Shown: piece after piece, positions 2,002 through 60,205 of the stretch
How the letters are laid out: every line of letters begins with the position of its first letter
How positions within the stretch are numbered: the first letter of the stretch is position 1
NCBI RefSeq assembly: GCF_011045215.1
Contig: NZ_CP049201.1
DNA: 64,000 nt
Strand: one strand, 5' to 3'
Source: Escherichia coli
Lineage (GTDB): Bacteria; Pseudomonadota; Gammaproteobacteria; Enterobacterales; Enterobacteriaceae
Program-made: the position numbers and the translations under genes
The notes under the pieces: model-generated
Told to the model about the DNA's origin: nothing
What the model saw: the letters and a program-made list of their open reading frames with translations, nothing else
Database searches by the model: none

Positions 2002-2577
2002 ATGCGTGTCATCACCCTGGCGGGTAGTCCTCGCTTTCCTTCTCGCTCCAGCTCCTTGCTGGAATATGCGCGGGAAAAACTAAATGGCCTGGATGTTGAG
2101 GTTTATCACTGGAATCTGCAAAACTTCGCCGCGGAAGATCTGCTTTATGCTCGTTTCGATAGTCCGGCACTCCATACCTTCACCGAACAGTTGCAACAGG
2201 CTGACGGGCTGATTGTCGCCACGCCTGTATATAAAGCCGCCTATTCCGGTGCGCTGAAAACCCTGCTCGACCTGCTGCCAGAACGTGCGTTGCAAGGCAA
2301 AGTGGTGCTACCGCTGGCGACGGGCGGTTCGGTGGCCCATCTGCTGGCGGTCGATTATGCCCTTAAGCCAGTTTTAAGTGCGCTGAAAGCCCAGGAGATC
2401 CTGCACGGCGTGTTTGCCGATGACTCGCAGGTGATTGATTACCATCACAAACCCCAGTTCACGCCGAATTTACAAACCCGTCTTGATACCGCGCTAGAAA
2501 CTTTCTGGCAGGCATTGCACCGCCGCGATGTTCAGGTTCCTGATCTTCATTCTCTGCGAGGTAATGCCCATGCGTAA
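2002..2577 (+). CDS. ssuE: NADPH-dependent FMN reductase of the sulfonate-sulfur utilisation system, 191 aa
   Basis: ORF track 191 aa; first gene of the five-gene ssu operon with overlapping downstream genes; AT-rich promoter region upstream. Confidence 0.93.
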
Positions 2578-3529
2578 CATCATTAAACTGGCGCTGGTGG
2601 GATTGCTTAGCGTCTCTACACTCGCGGTTGCTGCAGAGTCTTCGCCAGAGGCGTTAAGGATTGGCTATCAGAAAAGCAACATCAGTTCGGTGCTGGCGAA
2701 AAATTACCAAATGCTGGAAAAACGCTATCCGCAAACAAAAATCTCGTGGGTGGAGTTCCCCGCTGGCCCGCAAATGCTTGAGGCGTTAAACGTTGGCAGT
2801 ATTGATCTCGGCAGTACCGGGGATATTCCGCCAATCTTCGCCCAGGCTGCCGGGGCTGATTTGCTGTACGTGGGCGTCGAGCCGCCGAAGCCAAAAGCCG
2901 AGGTGATTCTGGTGGCAGAAAACAGCCCGATCAAAACCGTAGCCGATCTTAAAGGCCACAAAGTTGCGTTCCAGAAAGGTTCCAGTTCACACAATCTTTT
3001 ACTGCGCGCACTACGCCAGGCCGGACTTAAGTTTACTGACATCCAGCCCACTTATCTGACGCCAGCTGATGCCCGCGCCGCGTTCCAGCAAGGTAACGTT
3101 GACGCCTGGGCTATCTGGGATCCCTACTACTCCGCTGCATTATTACAGGGCGGCGTGCGGGTGTTGAAAGACGGCACCGATCTCAATCAAACCGGATCGT
3201 TTTATCTGGCAGCTCGCCCCTATGCAGAAAAAAATGGCGCTTTTATTCAGGGTGTACTGGCAACCTTTAGTGAGGCCGATGCGTTAACCCGCAGCCAGCG
3301 CGAGCAAAGCATCGCTTTACTGGCAAAAACGATGGGCTTACCGGCACCGGTGATTGCCTCTTACTTAGATCATCGCCCTCCTACCACCATCAAACCGATT
3401 AACGCCGAGGTTGCCGCCTTACAGCAGCAAACGGCAGATCTGTTTTATGAAAACCGTCTGGTGCCGAAAAAAGTCGATATTCGCCAGCGCATCTGGCAGC
3501 CCACTCAACTGGAAGGAAAACAATTATGA
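2570..3529 (+). CDS. ssuA: Periplasmic aliphatic sulfonate-binding protein, 319 aa (start ATG at 2570, overlaps ssuE end)
   Basis: ORF track frame; N-terminus [21 protein letters not shown] is a signal peptide; substrate-binding protein fold composition. Confidence 0.93.
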
Positions 3530-33085: not shown

Positions 33086-35350
33086 CTACCCGTTATCCAC
33101 TGGCACGCCAAACCACTGATGATACCAACGAGGTAAAATTTGCTCCCTGAGGCTGCTAATCCGCCAGCCTTGTGCTGAAAAATTGACCGTTAGTTGCCCC
33201 TGATGAGGAGTATCAAGCCACGTATAACCCTGTTGTTGATAGCGATGCTTAACTTTGTTAGAGGGCAGTCGCCATGCGTTATAGCGCGATGCCGATGCGA
33301 GTGCCACTTTTCCATTCACTCGCTGAATTAATGGCAACGATGATGAGGTATTACTGCCATGGTGAGGTACCTGAAGCAATGTTGCCTGCACTTGCTGCCA
33401 GTAACGGCTTAGCATCTTTTGTTCAGCGGGGACTTCAATATCACCGGTTAGAAGAATGCTATTCGTCCCGTCATCAACCTTAACCACACAGGAATGGTTA
33501 TTTCCTTTATCGTTGCTAGCTTGTAAAGGCCAGTGCACGCTGAAACGCAATCCTTGCCATTGCCACGCTTCGCCACGCACACAGGGCTGATGATGTTCCC
33601 AGTTTAACGGACTTCTGATCCATAACATCGGCCATGTGTGCAATATTGAGTCCAGCCCTCCCCGGTGATCCAGATGTTCATGACTCAGAATAACGCCTTC
33701 CGGTTCAAGATTATGCCAGTGGAGCCAGGGGATAATCAGTTGTTGCCCACTATCCCCTTCAGGCCAGGCCAGTCCCGTGTCATAGAGAATCGCTTTGCCG
33801 TTTCTGGCTATCACCATTGCCAGCCCTTGCCCGACATCAAGCATGTACACTTGCCACTCGTCAGGTCGAGGTTTTTGCCACAGCGGCCAGCACATCAGCA
33901 AGCCTACAGCCACACACATTGCTGGCAACGTTCGCCAGGCGTTTAATCGCCATACCACCAGTAAGAACCATGGGGAAAATGATAGCCATTGCCAACGTTC
34001 AGCAATGTTGATCCACCCTTCTGGCAAACTCTTTAACCCCCAGAAAAGTAAAGCCAAAGACCGGTCGGCAAGAAACCATAACCCTTGCTCCAGGATTAAC
34101 GGCCCGCTTGAATGCACAACCATCGCGGCGAGGATCAACGGAACCGTGATAAATGTCACCAAGGGAATTGCTAATAGATTTGCAATAAACGAGGTCAGAC
34201 TAATGCCATGAAATATGACGATTTGCACGGGCATAAGCAGAAGTGTGATTCCCAGTTGCAGATGGATGAGGGAAACAACTGCACGCAATACCGGCGGCAG
34301 TTGCCACTCAGGACAGGGAAACCACTGATACCAAAATATCAATGCCGCGACCGCAGCGGCAGAGAGCCATAAACTTTGCGAGAGAATGGCAACAGGATCC
34401 ATCAGCAAAATTGCCGCCAGACAACATATCCATACATCCCAGCCACTCCACTGTCGCCCACTTAACTTAAGCATTCCCCACGTAGCAAGCGCCACAACGG
34501 TACGCAATGCAGGAGGTTGCATTCCCGTCAGCCAGGCATAAAAAGCAGCACAGCAGATTCCGCCAATTAATGGCATTTGCCAGTGGATCCAGCGCCCAGG
34601 CAGAAAAATTTGTCCACTGCGAATGAGTCCGGCAGCCAGCAACGCCGCAAAAGCGATGTGCAATCCCGATATCGCCATTAAATGCGCCGTTCCAGTATCA
34701 CGCATGATATTTTTGATTTCTTTAGGGACGGATAACCGTTCCCCCATACCTAAACCAAGAATAACCGCATTCCACGGATAGGGTTGCAGCGTTGTTTGTA
34801 GTGACGCCAGATACTGTGCACGCAGGCTACAATTCGGTTCAATAACACTTGCCTGCAGAAAGCGGCCGGTGAGCGGCTGATGCTGGGCAATGGCATAACG
34901 CTGGCTATCAAAGCCGCCATCATTAAGTTGACCATGAACGGCACGAACTTTGAGTTTCATTGACCACAGTTGTCCGGCACAAACCGCTTGCGGAAGATAT
35001 TCGCCATACAGCACAAGGCCTGGCGCAGGGAATATACGTCGACCTTGTAGATGAGTAATTTGACCGTAATGAGTGGTCATGCCGTCAGTTGCAGTGATCT
35101 CAACAATTGCATCCTGCGTCGCGCCAGTTAAGGTTTCTCCTGCCCACAAAATTTGCTTTGCCGCTAATATACCCCAAATGAAAAACAGCAACGTCAGCGC
35201 GATATAACGTACGGTTTTAACAGGGATAAATGCCAGTACGCAGGCGAAGAGAGTCAGAAACGCAAGGGTTAATGTCCCAGGCAAATGGGGCAAAAGCAGC
35301 AACGGAAAAATTCCGCTAATTATGCATACGCCGACTGTCGTTATTTTCAT
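33086..35350 (-). CDS. ycaI: ComEC/Rec2-family inner-membrane protein with C-terminal metallo-beta-lactamase domain, ~754 aa
   Basis: ORF track frame 33086..35380; polytopic N-terminal region and motif SHEHLDHRGG near C-terminus. Confidence 0.9.
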   Translation of the reverse strand: MKITTVGVCIISGIFPLLLLPHLPGTLTLAFLTLFACVLAFIPVKTVRYIALTLLFFIWGILAAKQILWAGETLTGATQDAIVEITATDGMTTHYGQITHLQGRRIFPAPGLVLYGEYLPQAVCAGQLWSMKLKVRAVHGQLNDGGFDSQRYAIAQHQPLTGRFLQASVIEPNCSLRAQYLASLQTTLQPYPWNAVILGLGMGERLSVPKEIKNIMRDTGTAHLMAISGLHIAFAALLAAGLIRSGQIFLPGRWIHWQMPLIGGICCAAFYAWLTGMQPPALRTVVALATWGMLKLSGRQWSGWDVWICCLAAILLMDPVAILSQSLWLSAAAVAALIFWYQWFPCPEWQLPPVLRAVVSLIHLQLGITLLLMPVQIVIFHGISLTSFIANLLAIPLVTFITVPLILAAMVVHSSGPLILEQGLWFLADRSLALLFWGLKSLPEGWINIAERWQWLSFSPWFLLVVWRLNAWRTLPAMCVAVGLLMCWPLWQKPRPDEWQVYMLDVGQGLAMVIARNGKAILYDTGLAWPEGDSGQQLIIPWLHWHNLEPEGVILSHEHLDHRGGLDSILHTWPMLWIRSPLNWEHHQPCVRGEAWQWQGLRFSVHWPLQASNDKGNNHSCVVKVDDGTNSILLTGDIEVPAEQKMLSRYWQQVQATLLQVPHHGSNTSSSLPLIQRVNGKVALASASRYNAWRLPSNKVKHRYQQQGYTWLDTPHQGQLTVNFSAQGWRISSLREQILPRWYHQWFGVPVDNG

Positions 35351-45127: not shown

Positions 45128-45141
45128 ATGATCTATATCAA
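45128..45141. promoter_or_regulatory. FNR-type site (aTGAT-N4-ATCAA) in focA-pflB promoter region
   Basis: atgatctatatcaa palindrome read directly, followed by tataat at 45151-45156. Confidence 0.6.
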
Positions 45142-49328: not shown

Positions 49329-49337
49329 TTTCCCCGT

Positions 49338-49372
49338 AAAGCGGCAACTTTATTGAGTTGCCGCTTTTTTAT
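49338..49372 (+). terminator. Rho-independent terminator of pflA
   Basis: aaagcggcaactttattgagttgccgcttt hairpin followed by TTTTTT. Confidence 0.8.
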
Positions 49373-49537
49373 TCCGCGCTGCATAAATAATTCAGAGCTC
49401 TATTTCTAACGCCCTTACAGCACAGCTTCCAAATGTATTACCCAAACCGCCAGTATATGTCCTGCGGCTTGCGCGCATTTCTCGATTATGTAAAAACGGG
49501 TCAGATCTGCCAGAGTCAGCGTCACCGACCACAATAA

Positions 49538-53302: not shown

Positions 53303-54166
53303 TTAGCTTGCGACGGCCATCCCCACGGTCATATGCAAACCATAGAATACGCCGCGACCGATTAATTCCCCTGCCAGAAGCAGAATGAATGAGACGGATA
53401 GTAGCGGAACCGCAGGCTGATAACCTTTTAGCTGTGGTGCAATCCACAAGCACAGGGCAACGGCCAAAAGCACGATTCGCCAGGACATCAGCGCACCATA
53501 GTCCGGCACCAGCGCTGCGGCCTGCTGCACAGAACTATGAATAGTTGCCAGCTCTGTGCCCTGCATCACTGACATCACGCCACTCACCACCAGTGCCAGT
53601 ACAGAAATGGCTGGCAGCAGACGCATCGCCCAGCCATCGACGCCAGCCAGACTCAGCAACAGGTAACCCAGTAACGGGCCGCCCATGAACATCGTCAGGA
53701 AGAAGCCCATCGGCGTCCAGATGCTGTACCAGGTCGGAACGGTATCAATGCTGTTATACACACGCACCATCATCCAGACAAAGACGACGCCAAGAACCAT
53801 CGTCACCACCAGCCATAGCGTACGCAATGCAGGTGACAGCTTTTTCAGCGTTGCCAGCAACCAGCCGATGCCGCCTACAGCAAAAAAGATCGAACCGCTG
53901 GCGATTTCGTTACTGAGTGCTGAAGCCCCTACCCGGTTGAGCGAGTTAAAGGCGCGCATCGGTGAACCAAGATGGAGCATAGAGGCGATAAAGCCAATGC
54001 CCATCAGCACCCATAAGCCAAACATGCAGGCGATAACACGCTGCTGGGCTTCTGCTCGCTGGTCGCCTTTGAGCAGCGCCAAAGCCAGAACGATAAAACC
54101 ACCCGCCACACATTGCCCGAAGACCGTGAAGATCATCAGCGGCCATTCATGCCATCCACTTCCCAT
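53303..54166 (-). CDS. dmsC: DMSO reductase membrane anchor subunit, 287 aa (start MGSGWHEW)
   Basis: ORF track frame 53303..54229; hydrophobic; overlaps dmsB stop. Confidence 0.9.
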   Translation of the reverse strand: MGSGWHEWPLMIFTVFGQCVAGGFIVLALALLKGDQRAEAQQRVIACMFGLWVLMGIGFIASMLHLGSPMRAFNSLNRVGASALSNEIASGSIFFAVGGIGWLLATLKKLSPALRTLWLVVTMVLGVVFVWMMVRVYNSIDTVPTWYSIWTPMGFFLTMFMGGPLLGYLLLSLAGVDGWAMRLLPAISVLALVVSGVMSVMQGTELATIHSSVQQAAALVPDYGALMSWRIVLLAVALCLWIAPQLKGYQPAVPLLSVSFILLLAGELIGRGVFYGLHMTVGMAVAS

Positions 54167-54167
54167 C

Positions 54168-54785
54168 TCACACCTCATTCGGGTTTGCCAGATAGCCAGT
54201 GGTATCCCCGGTCGGGCGGCTATTGGCATTGGGTTTGATCACAATATTCGGTTTGGTAAAGTGAGCTCGCGGCAACGGCGCAACGGCCGCCAGATCGCCA
54301 TGTTTTTTACGCAGCTCGTCGATAGGGCCGAAATCCAGCGCCCGCAGCGGACAAGATTCAACACAGATCGGCTTTTTACCCTCCGCAACACGGTCATAAC
54401 AACCATCGCATTTGGTCATATGGCCTTTCGTTTCGTTATATTGCGGTGCGCCATACGGGCAAGCCATATGGCAGTAGCGGCAGCCAATGCACACATCCTC
54501 ATCGACCACAACAAAACCATCTTCACGTTTATGCATCGCACCGCTCGGGCAGACTTTAGTACAAGCCGGATCTTCGCAGTGGTTGCACGAAATCGACAGA
54601 TAGTAGGCAAACACGTTCTGGTGCCAGACACCGTTATCTTCCTGCCAGTCGCCACCAGCATATTCATAAATGCGGCGGAAGCTGACTTCTGGCGTCAAAT
54701 CTTTGTAGTCTTTACAAGCCAGCTCGCAGGTTTTGCAACCGGTGCAACGGCTGGAATCAATAAAAAATCCATACTGGGTTGTCAT
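54168..54785 (-). CDS. dmsB: DMSO reductase iron-sulfur subunit, 205 aa
   Basis: ORF track 205 aa; four ferredoxin-type Cys clusters (CTGCKTCELAC, CNHCEDPAC, CIGCRYCHMAC, CDGCYDRV). Confidence 0.96.
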   Translation of the reverse strand: MTTQYGFFIDSSRCTGCKTCELACKDYKDLTPEVSFRRIYEYAGGDWQEDNGVWHQNVFAYYLSISCNHCEDPACTKVCPSGAMHKREDGFVVVDEDVCIGCRYCHMACPYGAPQYNETKGHMTKCDGCYDRVAEGKKPICVESCPLRALDFGPIDELRKKHGDLAAVAPLPRAHFTKPNIVIKPNANSRPTGDTTGYLANPNEV

Positions 54786-54795
54786 CGGTTACTCC

Positions 54796-57240
54796 TTACA
54801 CCTTTTCAACCTGAACAAGGTTTGTATGTGACGGATTCCCCTTAGCGAGAGGAGACGGACGTTGAGTGGTCAGTACGTTAATACAACCACCCTTATCGAC
54901 ACGTTTTGCATCCGGGTCATACCAGGCACCTTCACCCAGTGCGACCACACCCGGCATCATTCGTGGCGTCACTTTCGCCTCAATATGAACCTCACCACGA
55001 TCGTTAAAGATCCTGACTTTATCGCCGTTGTGGATACCGCGTTTTTGGGCATCAAGCGGGTTGATCCACATTTCCTGACGGCAAGCCGCTTTCAGCACAT
55101 CAACGTTGCCGTAAGTTGAGTGAACGCGAGATTTATAGTGGAAACCTGTAAGCTGCAGCGGATACTGTTTGTTCAGCGGATCCTGATAACTTTCAAAGCC
55201 CGGCGTGTAGATCGGCAGTGGATCGATCACATCGCCTTCTGGCAATTCCCAGGTAGCGGCAATGTCAGCCAGCGCCTGCGAATAAATCTCAATTTTGCCC
55301 GATGGCGTAGTCAGTGGGTTTGCCTGCGGATCTTCACGGAAGGCTTTATAAGCAACGTGATGCCCTTGTGGGTCGCGCTTTTTAAAGATCCCCTGCTTGC
55401 GGAACTCTTCAAACGTTGGCAGTTCAGGAATCGCTTCCCGCGACTGGGCATACAGATGCCGCATCCACTCTTCCTGGGTACGGCCTTCAGTAAACTGTTG
55501 CTCAACGCCAAGACGTTTTGCCAGTTCGCTGGTCATTTCATAGATGGTCTTACATTCAAAGCGCGGTTTAATCACCTGATCGTTGAAAATCACGTAAGAC
55601 ATATTCCCGCAGGATGCATCCAGTGCAAAGTCCATCTGTTCGGAAGCGGTACAGTCAGGCAGCAGGATGTCAGCATATTTCGCCGATGAAGTCATGTGGC
55701 AGTCGATAACCACAATCAGCTCGCACTTCTTATCATCCTGGAGGATTTCATGGGTACGGTTGATTTCAGAATGCTGGTTAATCAGGCAGTTACCGGCATA
55801 GTTCCAGATCATTTTGATCGGCACATCCAGCTTATCTTTCCCGCGCACACCATCACGCAGCGCCGTCATTTCCGGGCCACGTTCAATGGCATCGGTCCAC
55901 ATAAACATAGAAATGCTGGTCTGGATCGGGTTTTCCAGAGTCGGCATACGGACAAACGGTAAGCTGTATGAACCTTCACGCGCGCCGCTGTTCCCTCCAT
56001 TAATACCAACGTTACCGGTCAGAATCGCCAGCATCGAGATAGCACGGGTTGCGATTTCACCGTTAGCGTGACGCTGCGGGCCCCATCCCTGGCTGATAAA
56101 CGCCGGTTTGGTACTGCCGATTTCACGAGCCAGTTTGATGATTTTGTCTGCCGGAACACCGGTGATTTGCGAGGCCCATTCCGGTGTTTTAGCCACGCCA
56201 TCTGGCCCTTCACCCAGAATATAAGCTTTATAGTGGCCATTTTTCGGCGCACTGGCTGGCAGGGTTTTCTCGTCATAGCCAACGCAATATTTATCGAGGA
56301 ATGCCTGATCCACCAGGTTTTCGGTGATCATGACATACGCCAGACCGTTAACCAGTGCGGCATCTGTTCCTGGACGAATAGGGATCCACTCATCTTCGCG
56401 CCCGGCACCGGTGTCGGTATAGCGCGGATCGATGATGATCATGCGGGCATTAGATTTCTGACGCGCCTGTTCAAGATAGTAAGTCACCCCACCGCCACTC
56501 ATTCGCGTTTCGCCAGGGTTATTACCAAACAGCACTACCAGCTTACTGTTTTCGATATCCGACGGGCTGTTGCCATCTGCCCAGCCGCCCTAGGTATAGT
56601 TCAGACCTTCCGCAATTTGCGCGGAAGAGTAGTCACCGTAATGGTTCAGATAACCGCCGCAGCAGTTCATCAGCCGCGCGACCAGGGTATTTCCCGGCGG
56701 CCAGGAGCGGGTCATGGTGCCACCCAGCGTACCGGTGCCATAGTTAAGATAGATGGATTCGTTGCCGTACTCTTTGATCAGGCGCTGCATATTGGTCGCG
56801 ATGATGTCGTAGGCTTCTTCCCAGCTAATGCGCTCGAATTTGCCTTCACCGCGCGCCCCGACTCGTTTCATCGGATATTTCAGGCGGTCCGGATTATAGA
56901 CACGGCGACGCATGGAACGCCCACGCAAACAGGCGCGAACCTGGTGCAGGCCGTCGTAATTGTCATCGCCGGTATTGTCCGTTTCGACATATTTGATTTC
57001 ACCGTCCACGACGTGCATACGTAGCGGGCAGCGACTACCACAGTTAACTGTACAGGCGCTCCAGATAACCTTTTCGTCTGATTTTGTTGGAATGGCGCTA
57101 TCGACAGCGTGCGCAATCCGACTAAAAGGTAATGTTAATGCGCTGCTGGCCATTGCCAGGCCGCCGATCGCTGTCGTTTTTACCAAACCACGGCGACTCA
57201 CCTCAGCAGCCAATACCGCATCAGGGATTTTCGTTTTCAT
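54796..57240 (-). pseudogene. dmsA: DMSO reductase catalytic subunit dmsA interrupted by an in-frame TAG (amber) at 56590-56592
   Basis: Two same-frame ORFs (56590..57240, 216 aa with Tat signal SRRGLVKTTAIGGLAMA; 54796..56535, 579 aa) are separated only by a TAG; hand translation gives ...AEGLNYT*GGWADGNSPSDIENSKLVVLFGNNPGE, which is continuous DmsA sequence with a stop where Tyr is expected. Confidence 0.75.
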
Positions 57241-57410
57241 AATGGCTCACTCAAGCTTGCTCACGATTGATTCCAGTAACAAACCGTATTGTGTAATTAT
57301 TTCTATAGCAGATCGCTATATAGGCTTGTATACATCGAATAATTTGAAAATCAAAGAGATAGGTAGATTTTCACTCGAAAGTAGTATTACGTGTAAGTGA
57401 GGAGTAATTA

Positions 57411-57424
57411 TTGTTCGGTATCAA
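57411..57424 (-). promoter_or_regulatory. FNR site TTGATACCGAACAA in dmsA promoter
   Basis: Minus-strand reading of ttgttcggtatcaa gives TTGAT-ACCG-AACAA; about 170 bp upstream of dmsA start codon. Confidence 0.65.
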
Positions 57425-57436
57425 AGGGAGACAAAA

Positions 57437-57458
57437 AAAGCGCCCGCAGGCGCTTTTT
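57437..57458 (-). terminator. Rho-independent (bidirectional-looking) terminator after serS
   Basis: aagcgcccgcaggcgctt hairpin flanked by A-run and T-run. Confidence 0.85.
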
Positions 57459-57478
57459 AGATTCAGAAAAATTAGGTA

Positions 57479-58792
<1,314 letters not shown>

Positions 58793-58861
58793 TTAAATGG
58801 GAGATGTGGCCACAGCCTGCGACCACAGGGATACAGTAACAACATTACCGCAACGATAACA

Positions 58862-60205
58862 TTAACGGTAGCGTTTTATGGGGCTATTTTGATCCTGTTC
58901 AGCCAGCCAGGCGAGCTTTTCGCCAATCTTGCCTTCAAGGCCCCTGTTTGACGGGAAATAATAGCGTGTTTGTGCTATTTCCGGCGGGAAGTAAACCTCA
59001 CCGGCAGCATAAGCGTTTGCTTCATCATGAGCGTAACGATATTCCTGCCCATAGCCCATTTCCTTCATTAATTTCGTCGGCGCATTACGCAAATGAACCG
59101 GTACGTCATAATCCGGACGTTCGCGAGCATCGGCCAACGCGGCTTTAAACGCAGTGTAGACAGCGTTACTTTTTGGCGCGCAGGCCAGGTAAACAATCGC
59201 CTGAGCAATGGCGCGTTCACCTTCCGCCGGGCCAACGCGAGTAAAGCAATCCCAGGCTGCAATTGCCACCTGCATCGCTCGTGGATCAGCATTACCCACA
59301 TCTTCAGACGCAATCGCCAGACAGCGACGCGCAACATATAACGGATCGCCACCGGCAGTAATAATTCGCGCATACCAGTACAGCGCCGCATCGGGTGCGC
59401 TACCACGTACCGATTTATGCAGTGCGGAAATGAGATCGTAAAAGCGATCACCTTTGTTATCAAAGCGGGCACTACGTTCACCTGCGATTTCGGTCAGTAA
59501 TTCAGGCTTCAGGACCCGCTTACCGCTATCATCGACTTCGGCCATATCCGCCATCATTTCCAGCGTATTTAACGCCCGGCGCGCGTCGCCATTCACCAGT
59601 TCAGCAATGGCGCGTCGTGTTTCATCTGGCAGAACAATATCCTGACCACCATAGCCACGGGTTTTGTCTTCCATCGCCTGAGTTAGTACTTGCTGAATAT
59701 CCTCTGTACTCAGGGATTTCAACAGATAGACACGGGCACGGGAAAGCAGTGCCGAATTAAGCTCAAACGACGGGTTTTCAGTGGTTGCGCCAATAAAAGT
59801 GATGGTGCCGTCTTCAATATGTGGCAGAAATGCATCCTGCTGGCTTTTGTTGAAACGGTGAACTTCGTCAACAAAAAGAATAGTGCGGCGACCTGCATTG
59901 CGGTTTTGCCGGGCGCGCTCGATCGCCTCGCGAATCTCTTTCACGCCAGAGGTGACGGCAGAAATACGTTCCACATCAGCGTTCGCATAGCGGGCAATCA
60001 CTTCAGCGAGGGTTGTTTTGCCGGTACCCGGTGGCCCCCAGAGGATCATAGAATGTAAATGCCCGGCTTCGATAGCGCGCGGCAACGGCTTCCCCGCAGC
60101 CAGCAAATGTTGCTGGCCGATATACTGTGCTAAATTTTCTGGCCGCATACGCGCGGCCAGAGGTTGAAAAGTATTATCCGAAAAATCGAGCGACAGATTG
60201 CTCAC
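58862..60205 (-). CDS. rarA: Replication-associated recombination protein A (AAA+ ATPase, MgsA/YcaJ), 447 aa
   Basis: ORF track 447 aa; Walker [12 protein letters not shown]. Confidence 0.95.

Follow-up and report, generated by a model that had tools for sequence, protein, structure and literature searches.

A Canonical FNR-Dependent Control Region Upstream of a Probably Young Amber Codon in dmsA of Escherichia coli

Introduction

Can an intact operator upstream of a broken gene tell us when the gene was broken? This question is raised by the serS-dmsA spacer (57241-57478) of an Escherichia coli chromosome, in which an FNR-type box stands upstream of a dmsA gene that carries a single in-frame amber codon. 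In the original prediction, the intact box was taken to argue that the TAG codon is recent or an artefact rather than the result of old decay. A 2025 study describes dmsABC as conserved in E. coli and as supporting host interaction (PMC12096835); in the literature, we found no report of dmsA pseudogenes or of dmsA as a target of parallel loss.

The window, by which we mean the whole 64-kb stretch of DNA that was analyzed (64,000 nucleotides), is an E. coli-type chromosome segment in which the K-12 order (ftsK, lolA, rarA, serS, dmsABC, and ycaC onward) is reversed. On the minus strand, the upstream gene serS (57479..58771), a 430-aa open reading frame for serine--tRNA ligase that is annotated as serS in matching genomes, differs from its K-12 counterpart by 9 synonymous and no missense changes. 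It is followed on the same strand by dmsA (54796..57240, with its ATG at 57240..57238), which is full length at 2,445 nt, has no indels, and is interrupted by one amber codon, by dmsB (54168..54785; 205 aa, intact, with the substitution K203N), and by dmsC (53303..54166; 287 aa, intact in length, with the lineage-defining substitutions L36Q and M106T).

Results

We compared the 238-bp spacer (57241-57478) with that of K-12 MG1655 and observed two differing positions, 57474 and 57312, with zero differences from 57313 to 57473; both positions fall outside the named promoter elements. The spacer was also 100% identical to that of E. coli Combat11I9, where dmsA is annotated as intact. At position 57312, which lies at +65 in the leader and five bases from a ModE-like motif, three alleles (A, G, and T) occur in the population: K-12 dmsA P1 has A, other strains have G, and the stretch has T on the sense strand, creating a GATC. 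The T allele is likewise present in strains annotated with an intact dmsA. In E. albertii, the promoter blocks, the Shine-Dalgarno sequence, and the terminator were all invariant, and the intervening stretches varied. As one part of the overall explanation, we consider 57241-57478 to be very probably an ordinary E. coli serS-dmsA spacer with the canonical, unchanged control region of dmsABC.

The FNR box itself, TTGATACCGAACAA, occupies 57411..57424 on the minus strand (plus strand ttgttcggtatcaa), and compared with TTGAT-N4-ATCAA it shows one mismatch (AACAA for ATCAA), matching 9 of the 10 specified positions. It is located 171-184 nt upstream of the dmsA ATG, and the hairpin of the serS terminator lies 11 nt upstream of the box. 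Direct reading of the sequence and location of the hairpin at 57435-57458 by folding confirmed two statements of the original prediction, namely that a one-mismatch FNR site is present on this strand and that it lies between the serS terminator and dmsA. As a bare motif, the box is within chance expectation: a scan of the 64-kb window returned 6 matches with at most one mismatch versus 2.9 expected, and 8 of 100 shuffles reached 6. We accept the site as real because it is identical to a characterized K-12 promoter, not because of its motif score. The box equals the class II box of K-12 dmsA P1 (centre -41.5) base for base, it shows no change in E. albertii or in any of the E. coli and Shigella loci examined, and together with the block downstream it is written in upper case (conserved) in the consensus of Rfam RF02084. 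ChIP-seq in K-12 detected FNR at dmsABC, which is listed as directly activated and has its site at -41.5 (Myers et al. 2013, PMC3688515, Table 1). The class II geometry at dmsA is also reported in another source, according to which NarL gives protection over a large region, the FNR and RNA polymerase sites included (PMC11363960), and the control of dmsA by ModE and FNR is stated in PMC12096835. The FNR site of the dmsA promoter is, in short, an already known, textbook feature.

With the box centre at 57417.5 and the published distance of 41.5, the start (+1) of dmsA P1 would lie at 57376 on the minus strand, giving a leader of 136 nt. If so, a -10-like hexamer, AATACT (57383..57388, minus strand), spans -12 to -7; the block that holds it, CGTAATACTACTTTCGAGTGAA, is invariant in E. 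albertii. A script search with the pattern TACYYMT yielded predicted NarL-type heptamers on the minus strand at -30 (TACTCCT, 57406..57400), at -10 (TACTACT, 57386..57380), at +12 (TACCTAT, 57365..57359), and at +16 (TATCTCT, 57361..57355), and their placement over the core promoter is consistent with the NarL protection at dmsA published in PMC11363960. A sigma-70 scan gave the candidate TTGTCT-16-AATAAT (57434..57407), which we rejected as the working promoter; its position overlaps that of the FNR box, and matches of this kind were as numerous as the shuffles predict. From its identity to functional alleles, transcription of dmsA is predicted to be intact in the source strain.

A scan of GTDB representatives with the promoter block across genera, for which the degenerate pattern was too strict, yielded E. 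albertii and, apart from it, just one E. coli-like contaminant contig, which leaves a conservation footprint limited to E. albertii and the Rfam consensus; the contig, CACSKA010000082.1, measures 391 bp, belongs to a Chryseobacterium sp. assembly, has an exact E. coli-type dmsA promoter block, and is most likely contamination. Elsewhere in the window, a second FNR-type box with one mismatch, ATGATCTATATCAA, was observed at 45128-45141 on the plus strand, 61-74 nt upstream of focA (45202), and fits the known FNR-activated focA-pflB promoter region.

Within the leader, the block at 57317..57335 (no strand assigned), which is conserved in E. albertii, contains a ModE-like operator of the form TATAT-N7-TAYAT (TATATAGGCTTGTATAC), a candidate for the ModE site. 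A Shine-Dalgarno-like GAGTGAG (57246..57252, minus strand) stands 5 nt upstream of the dmsA ATG and is the same in K-12 and E. albertii. The fold of the 157-nt leader was unremarkable (z -0.96), and the Rfam scan of the leader found no riboswitch (e.g., Moco); a structured leader is unsupported by either result. At the other end of the spacer, the intrinsic terminator of serS (57435..57458, minus strand) forms a stem-loop, GCGCC-TGCG-GGCGC, between an A-run and a T-run. Its GC stem (57440-57444 paired with 57449-57453) is followed by 7 T and is extended by A/T pairs to 57435-57458; the RNA fold reached -16.3 kcal/mol (z -4.3), and none of 200 shuffles was equally stable. The terminator is invariant in E. 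albertii and looks bidirectional. A consensus terminator scan found nothing at the spacer, a false negative that arose because the T-run is taken up into the A/T-extended stem, and the hairpin was recovered by folding. Other E. coli, among them ST131 EC958, have a P2-like prophage (integrase, Cox) inserted between serS and dmsA; in these loci, homology to the stretch restarts at 57456 or 57450, within the serS terminator, and the FNR box and all sequence downstream of it are kept.

An alternative reading of this conservation is that the block at 57331-57465 is maintained mainly as a small RNA of the plus strand rather than as the dmsA promoter. A full-length match to Rfam RF02084 (STnc130) was indeed obtained at 57331..57465 on the plus strand, antisense to the promoter and early leader of dmsA, scoring 140.1 bits where the gathering score is 55, with E = 1.6e-25 to 3.2e-25, and the terminator hairpin could act both ways. 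However, the sole real helix of the model is the terminator, which serves there as the 3' hairpin, its other "helix" comprises 2 pairs and is unformed in the stretch, and the columns that it conserves most strongly are complementary to the FNR box, the -30 NarL heptamer, and the -10/start region. A scan of 57150-57560 revealed no sigma-70 consensus on the plus strand, the literature lists STnc130 just as a "putative sRNA" adjoining dmsA in Salmonella (PMC3632133), and FNR binding and FNR-dependent activation are experimentally established at this place (PMC3688515). We judged the small-RNA reading unlikely, did not assign the region as an sRNA gene, and read the conservation of RF02084 as probably that of the dmsA promoter viewed from the opposite strand.

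The amber codon lies at codon 217 of dmsA (Y217*; 56590..56592, minus strand), where a change at 56590 converted the tyrosine codon TAC of K-12 into TAG. With this codon as the exception, DmsA equals K-12 at 813 of 814 codons without indels, and of the 34 nucleotide differences in dmsA, 33 were synonymous, 0 were missense, and 1 was nonsense, at a synonymous distance of 0.059. The absence of missense changes over ~1,880 nonsynonymous sites places a 95% upper bound of ~0.0016 substitutions per site on the time spent under neutrality, which is <3% of the synonymous distance between the stretch and K-12. The 41-mer with the TAG was centred on the changed base, such that every 28-nt seed must include that base, and it was found in 0 of 5,426 complete E. 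coli genomes; as a positive control for this design, the TAT variant of codon 217 was recovered in 15 genomes. Exact scans gave zero matches to the Y217* 41-mer in GTDB representative genomes and zero matches to the Y217* 30-mer in JGI metagenomes. Moreover, lineage sequences at least 99.96% identical to the stretch still have TAC at codon 217. A single lesion, a signature of purifying selection elsewhere in the gene, and absence from close relatives, the marks of a young pseudogene, were all observed. As a part of the same overall explanation, Y217* is in all likelihood a real mutation of very recent origin that is confined to the sub-lineage of this strain. The idea that the TAG is recent rather than a trace of old decay was correct, although on grounds other than the FNR box, being borne out by the comparison of synonymous with missense differences in dmsA, by the TAC of the relatives, and by the absence of the codon from the complete genomes. 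In a K-12-like background (SRR21846741), a 1-bp deletion of the same C, at the equivalent of 56590, also yields TAG and a 216-aa product, and this deletion represents a separate lesion of independent origin or else an error in the reads.

Might the TAG be a sequencing or assembly artefact in a gene that is really intact? Its uniqueness against 5,426 complete genomes, and its nature as a lone base change where the gene is otherwise perfect, are what such an error would look like. However, an independent de novo assembly of reads (SRR11014969, Logan) has the same base and was 100% identical to the stretch over 9.9 kb, TAG included, and amber codons have arisen in this lineage by three substitution types (C>G, G>T, and C>T), unlike systematic error. 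SRR11014969 may be the same isolate as the source genome, in which case it excludes assembly error and not mutation during laboratory passage. An artefact, which the original prediction had left as an alternative, is accordingly very improbable given this read-based assembly. Apparent additional carriers of exact 216-aa or 611-aa products were set aside; most of these contigs simply end at that codon and are not evidence of carriage.

The possibility that dmsABC is an old, decaying pseudo-operon in the source genome fared slightly worse still. DmsC L36Q changes a residue that did not vary among 11 homologues of four genera (Escherichia, Salmonella, Citrobacter, and Enterobacter), and DmsB carries K203N. 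However, K203N also occurs on other backgrounds with an intact dmsA and was ruled out as a sign of decay, dmsA has accumulated 33 synonymous and 0 missense differences relative to K-12 and no indels, close relatives have TAC at codon 217, and the spacer is unchanged. Furthermore, dmsB and dmsC are full length without stops or indels, and the truncations of DmsB or DmsC that mark the truly old Shigella cases are absent from the source genome. Further lesions in the promoter, dmsB, or dmsC, which had been proposed as the finding that would speak for long-term decay, were sought, and none that is disabling was found, with the caveat that DmsC L36Q may be another functional lesion of the operon, older and invisible as a stop codon. 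At the other changed residue of DmsC, position 106 is variable, and M106T introduces the natural residue of Citrobacter.

Although the TAG codon thus appears young, the intact FNR box does not carry this conclusion. The earlier reasoning, in which the intact box was taken to show that the TAG is recent, had no discriminating power; Shigella loci with a Q100* allele in dmsA keep the same box. This allele, which yields products of 99 aa and 705 aa, carries the name of Shigella boydii, has a one-residue variant in S. flexneri, and was present on 807 and on at least 1,000 contigs. The Q100* loci had an identical TTGATACCGAACAA in 10 of 10 cases, with spacers 2-3 bases from that of the stretch, and some of those of the S. 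boydii type (loci L046 and L049) have a DmsB of 122 aa, with homology breaking at window position 54446; in S. flexneri, at least 1,000 contigs encode a DmsC of 263 aa. In addition, nine independent frameshift or nonsense alleles of dmsA also keep TTGATACCGAACAA, including a 13-bp deletion, 1-bp and 2-bp insertions, and 1-bp deletions, some of which may be assembly errors, as error-ridden assemblies exist. Two of the loci that keep the box have a 219-aa N-terminal DmsA product. A look-up of a 144-aa C-terminal product was unusable, as most of what it recovered were long-read assemblies full of errors, with serS fragmented too. By simple arithmetic, an unconstrained 14-mer at a synonymous distance of 0.059 remains unchanged with a probability of ~0.43. 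An intact FNR box is without dating information because young and even old dmsA pseudogenes retain it.

To characterize the lineage, we used the exact DmsC protein (L36Q plus M106T) as a query that is blind to the state of dmsA; DmsC alleles with L36Q alone or M106T alone were not on record. The look-up returned 11 contigs, one of them a 5.41-Mb chromosome, of which four lineage sequences were read directly (SRR11014969, GCA_016672445.1, SRR8297627, and GCA_910665095.1), and the other seven or eight similar places could include an intact dmsA. The four sequences, some of which may be the same isolate assembled twice, were at least 99.96% identical to the stretch over 9.2-9.9 kb, and their spacers were 100% identical. 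Three amber alleles were observed: Y217* (TAC>TAG, C>G at 56590) in the stretch and SRR11014969, E612* (GAG>TAG, G>T at 55407) in GCA_016672445.1 and SRR8297627, and Q100* (CAG>TAG, C>T at 56943) in GCA_910665095.1. The three events are independent because no carrier departs from the wild-type codon at the two sites where the others are mutated. Among the complete E. coli genomes, E612* was found in 0 of 5,426 and Q100* in 4 of 5,426, and broader relatives with the same YcaM allele (O157/O55-like) have an intact dmsA. The only other variable sites of the lineage within the 9.9 kb were DmsB K203N and YcaM W193R. Since 3.7% of single-base changes in dmsA yield a stop, the probability under neutrality that two further dmsA changes are both nonsense is P = 1.4e-3, and the disabling mutations in dmsA exceed the neutral expectation among the four lineage sequences read.

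A further alternative, that the amber codon is suppressed or read through (e.g., by a suppressor tRNA elsewhere) so that the operon is functional and only amber codons are tolerated, could draw on all three lineage alleles being TAG when TAG makes up only 39% of the stops reachable by one substitution in dmsA, but we give it hardly any weight, as three of three falls short of significance (given the first, 0.39 squared is ~0.15), the 64-kb window contains no tRNA gene, the ~50 other genes of the window are without an in-frame stop, against a general amber tolerance, and three hits in one gene would be left unexplained.

Several further features of the region were observed. The locus (53303-57478) is a mosaic, in which the serS-dmsA part is closest to strains like Combat11I9 (5 differences in dmsA), and dmsBC through ycaM is closest to O55:H7/O157-like genomes (2-3 differences, but 27-28 in dmsA). 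SRR8297627 is near-identical downstream of 58666, yet shows 22 mismatches in the ~1.1 kb of 58667-59740 (the serS 5' end and rarA), a pattern that indicates a recombination tract between members of the lineage. Compared with K-12, the pflA-ycaM interval (49329-49537) lacks ycaK and has ycaN cut to its last ~113 nt; ycaM directly adjoins pflA, the same arrangement as in O157/O55-like genomes. The gene ycaI (33086-35350) has 23.5 nonsynonymous differences from K-12 and a pN/pS of 0.23, the top ratio among the long genes of the window. Finally, ssuE and ssuA (2002-3529) are unusually divergent from K-12, with pS of 0.15 and 0.18 versus 0.02-0.09 in their neighbours, and this divergence suggests an imported segment.

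Discussion

Taken together, we proposed, with a probability of roughly 85%, that a known and intact control region here precedes a young and genuine amber lesion, and that the FNR box carries no information on the age of that lesion. For the reading of genome scans, the lesson is that a break in a gene cannot be dated from a short operator that is still intact upstream, and that the informative tests are the ratio of synonymous to missense changes and the comparison with sister genomes.

The combined picture suggests the following course of expression. Downstream of the serS terminator, transcription would start from a class II FNR-activated sigma-70 promoter at the calculated position 57376, and FNR would still switch dmsA on anaerobically, given the identity of the promoter to functional alleles; the NarL heptamers over the core promoter would mediate repression by nitrate. 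The transcript would then pass the predicted ModE-like operator in the 136-nt leader before reaching the Shine-Dalgarno sequence and the ATG. Translation of dmsA would stop at the amber codon 217 and release a fragment of 216 residues, which contains the Tat signal and the Fe-S cluster domain (Pfam) and is without most of the molybdopterin domains. This fragment is presumably non-functional, such that no DMSO reductase would be made, and the 1.8 kb left untranslated would be expected to expose dmsBC to Rho-dependent polarity.

Beyond the single strain, the parallel stops suggest a selected or permitted loss of DMSO reductase with the promoter staying intact. In its stronger form, the proposal is that a rare phylogroup-E-like lineage has repeatedly and independently acquired amber knock-outs of dmsA, with the promoter untouched and the loss positively selected; we advance this form tentatively and consider it somewhat less probable than its negation. 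As for a trigger, DmsC L36Q might make anaerobic expression of the complex costly, and polar stops in the first gene would then be the easiest relief; alternatively, the activity of DmsABC itself may be harmful in the niche of the lineage. If the loss was selected, it would point to a cost of expressing a reductase of DMSO or of S-/N-oxides in some niches. The modest biological lead is that one lineage carries three independent amber knock-outs of dmsA and that Shigella has fixed one of these three changes.

Several known systems are instructive for comparison. With respect to K-12 dmsA P1, the FNR box, the -10 element, the NarL heptamers, the ModE-like motif, the leader, the Shine-Dalgarno sequence, and the start codon of the stretch are identical, and the differences are the T allele at 57312 and the amber codon in the gene downstream. 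The RF02084 family, a putative sRNA, has virtually no structure beyond the terminator that it shares with the stretch. The dmsA pseudogene of Shigella resembles that of the stretch in its single-base amber mutation and in its unchanged FNR box and spacer; however, the Shigella Q100* allele is widespread and accompanied by secondary truncation of DmsB or DmsC, whereas Y217* is limited to one sub-lineage without such truncation, and in Shigella the FNR box of dmsA has outlived the gene. Parallel loss of genes is exemplified in E. coli and Shigella by the pathoadaptive loss of cadA and by the recurrent null alleles of rpoS, and the dmsA alleles described here resemble loss of the cadA and rpoS type in that different disabling point mutations occur in close isolates while the regulatory region is left untouched.
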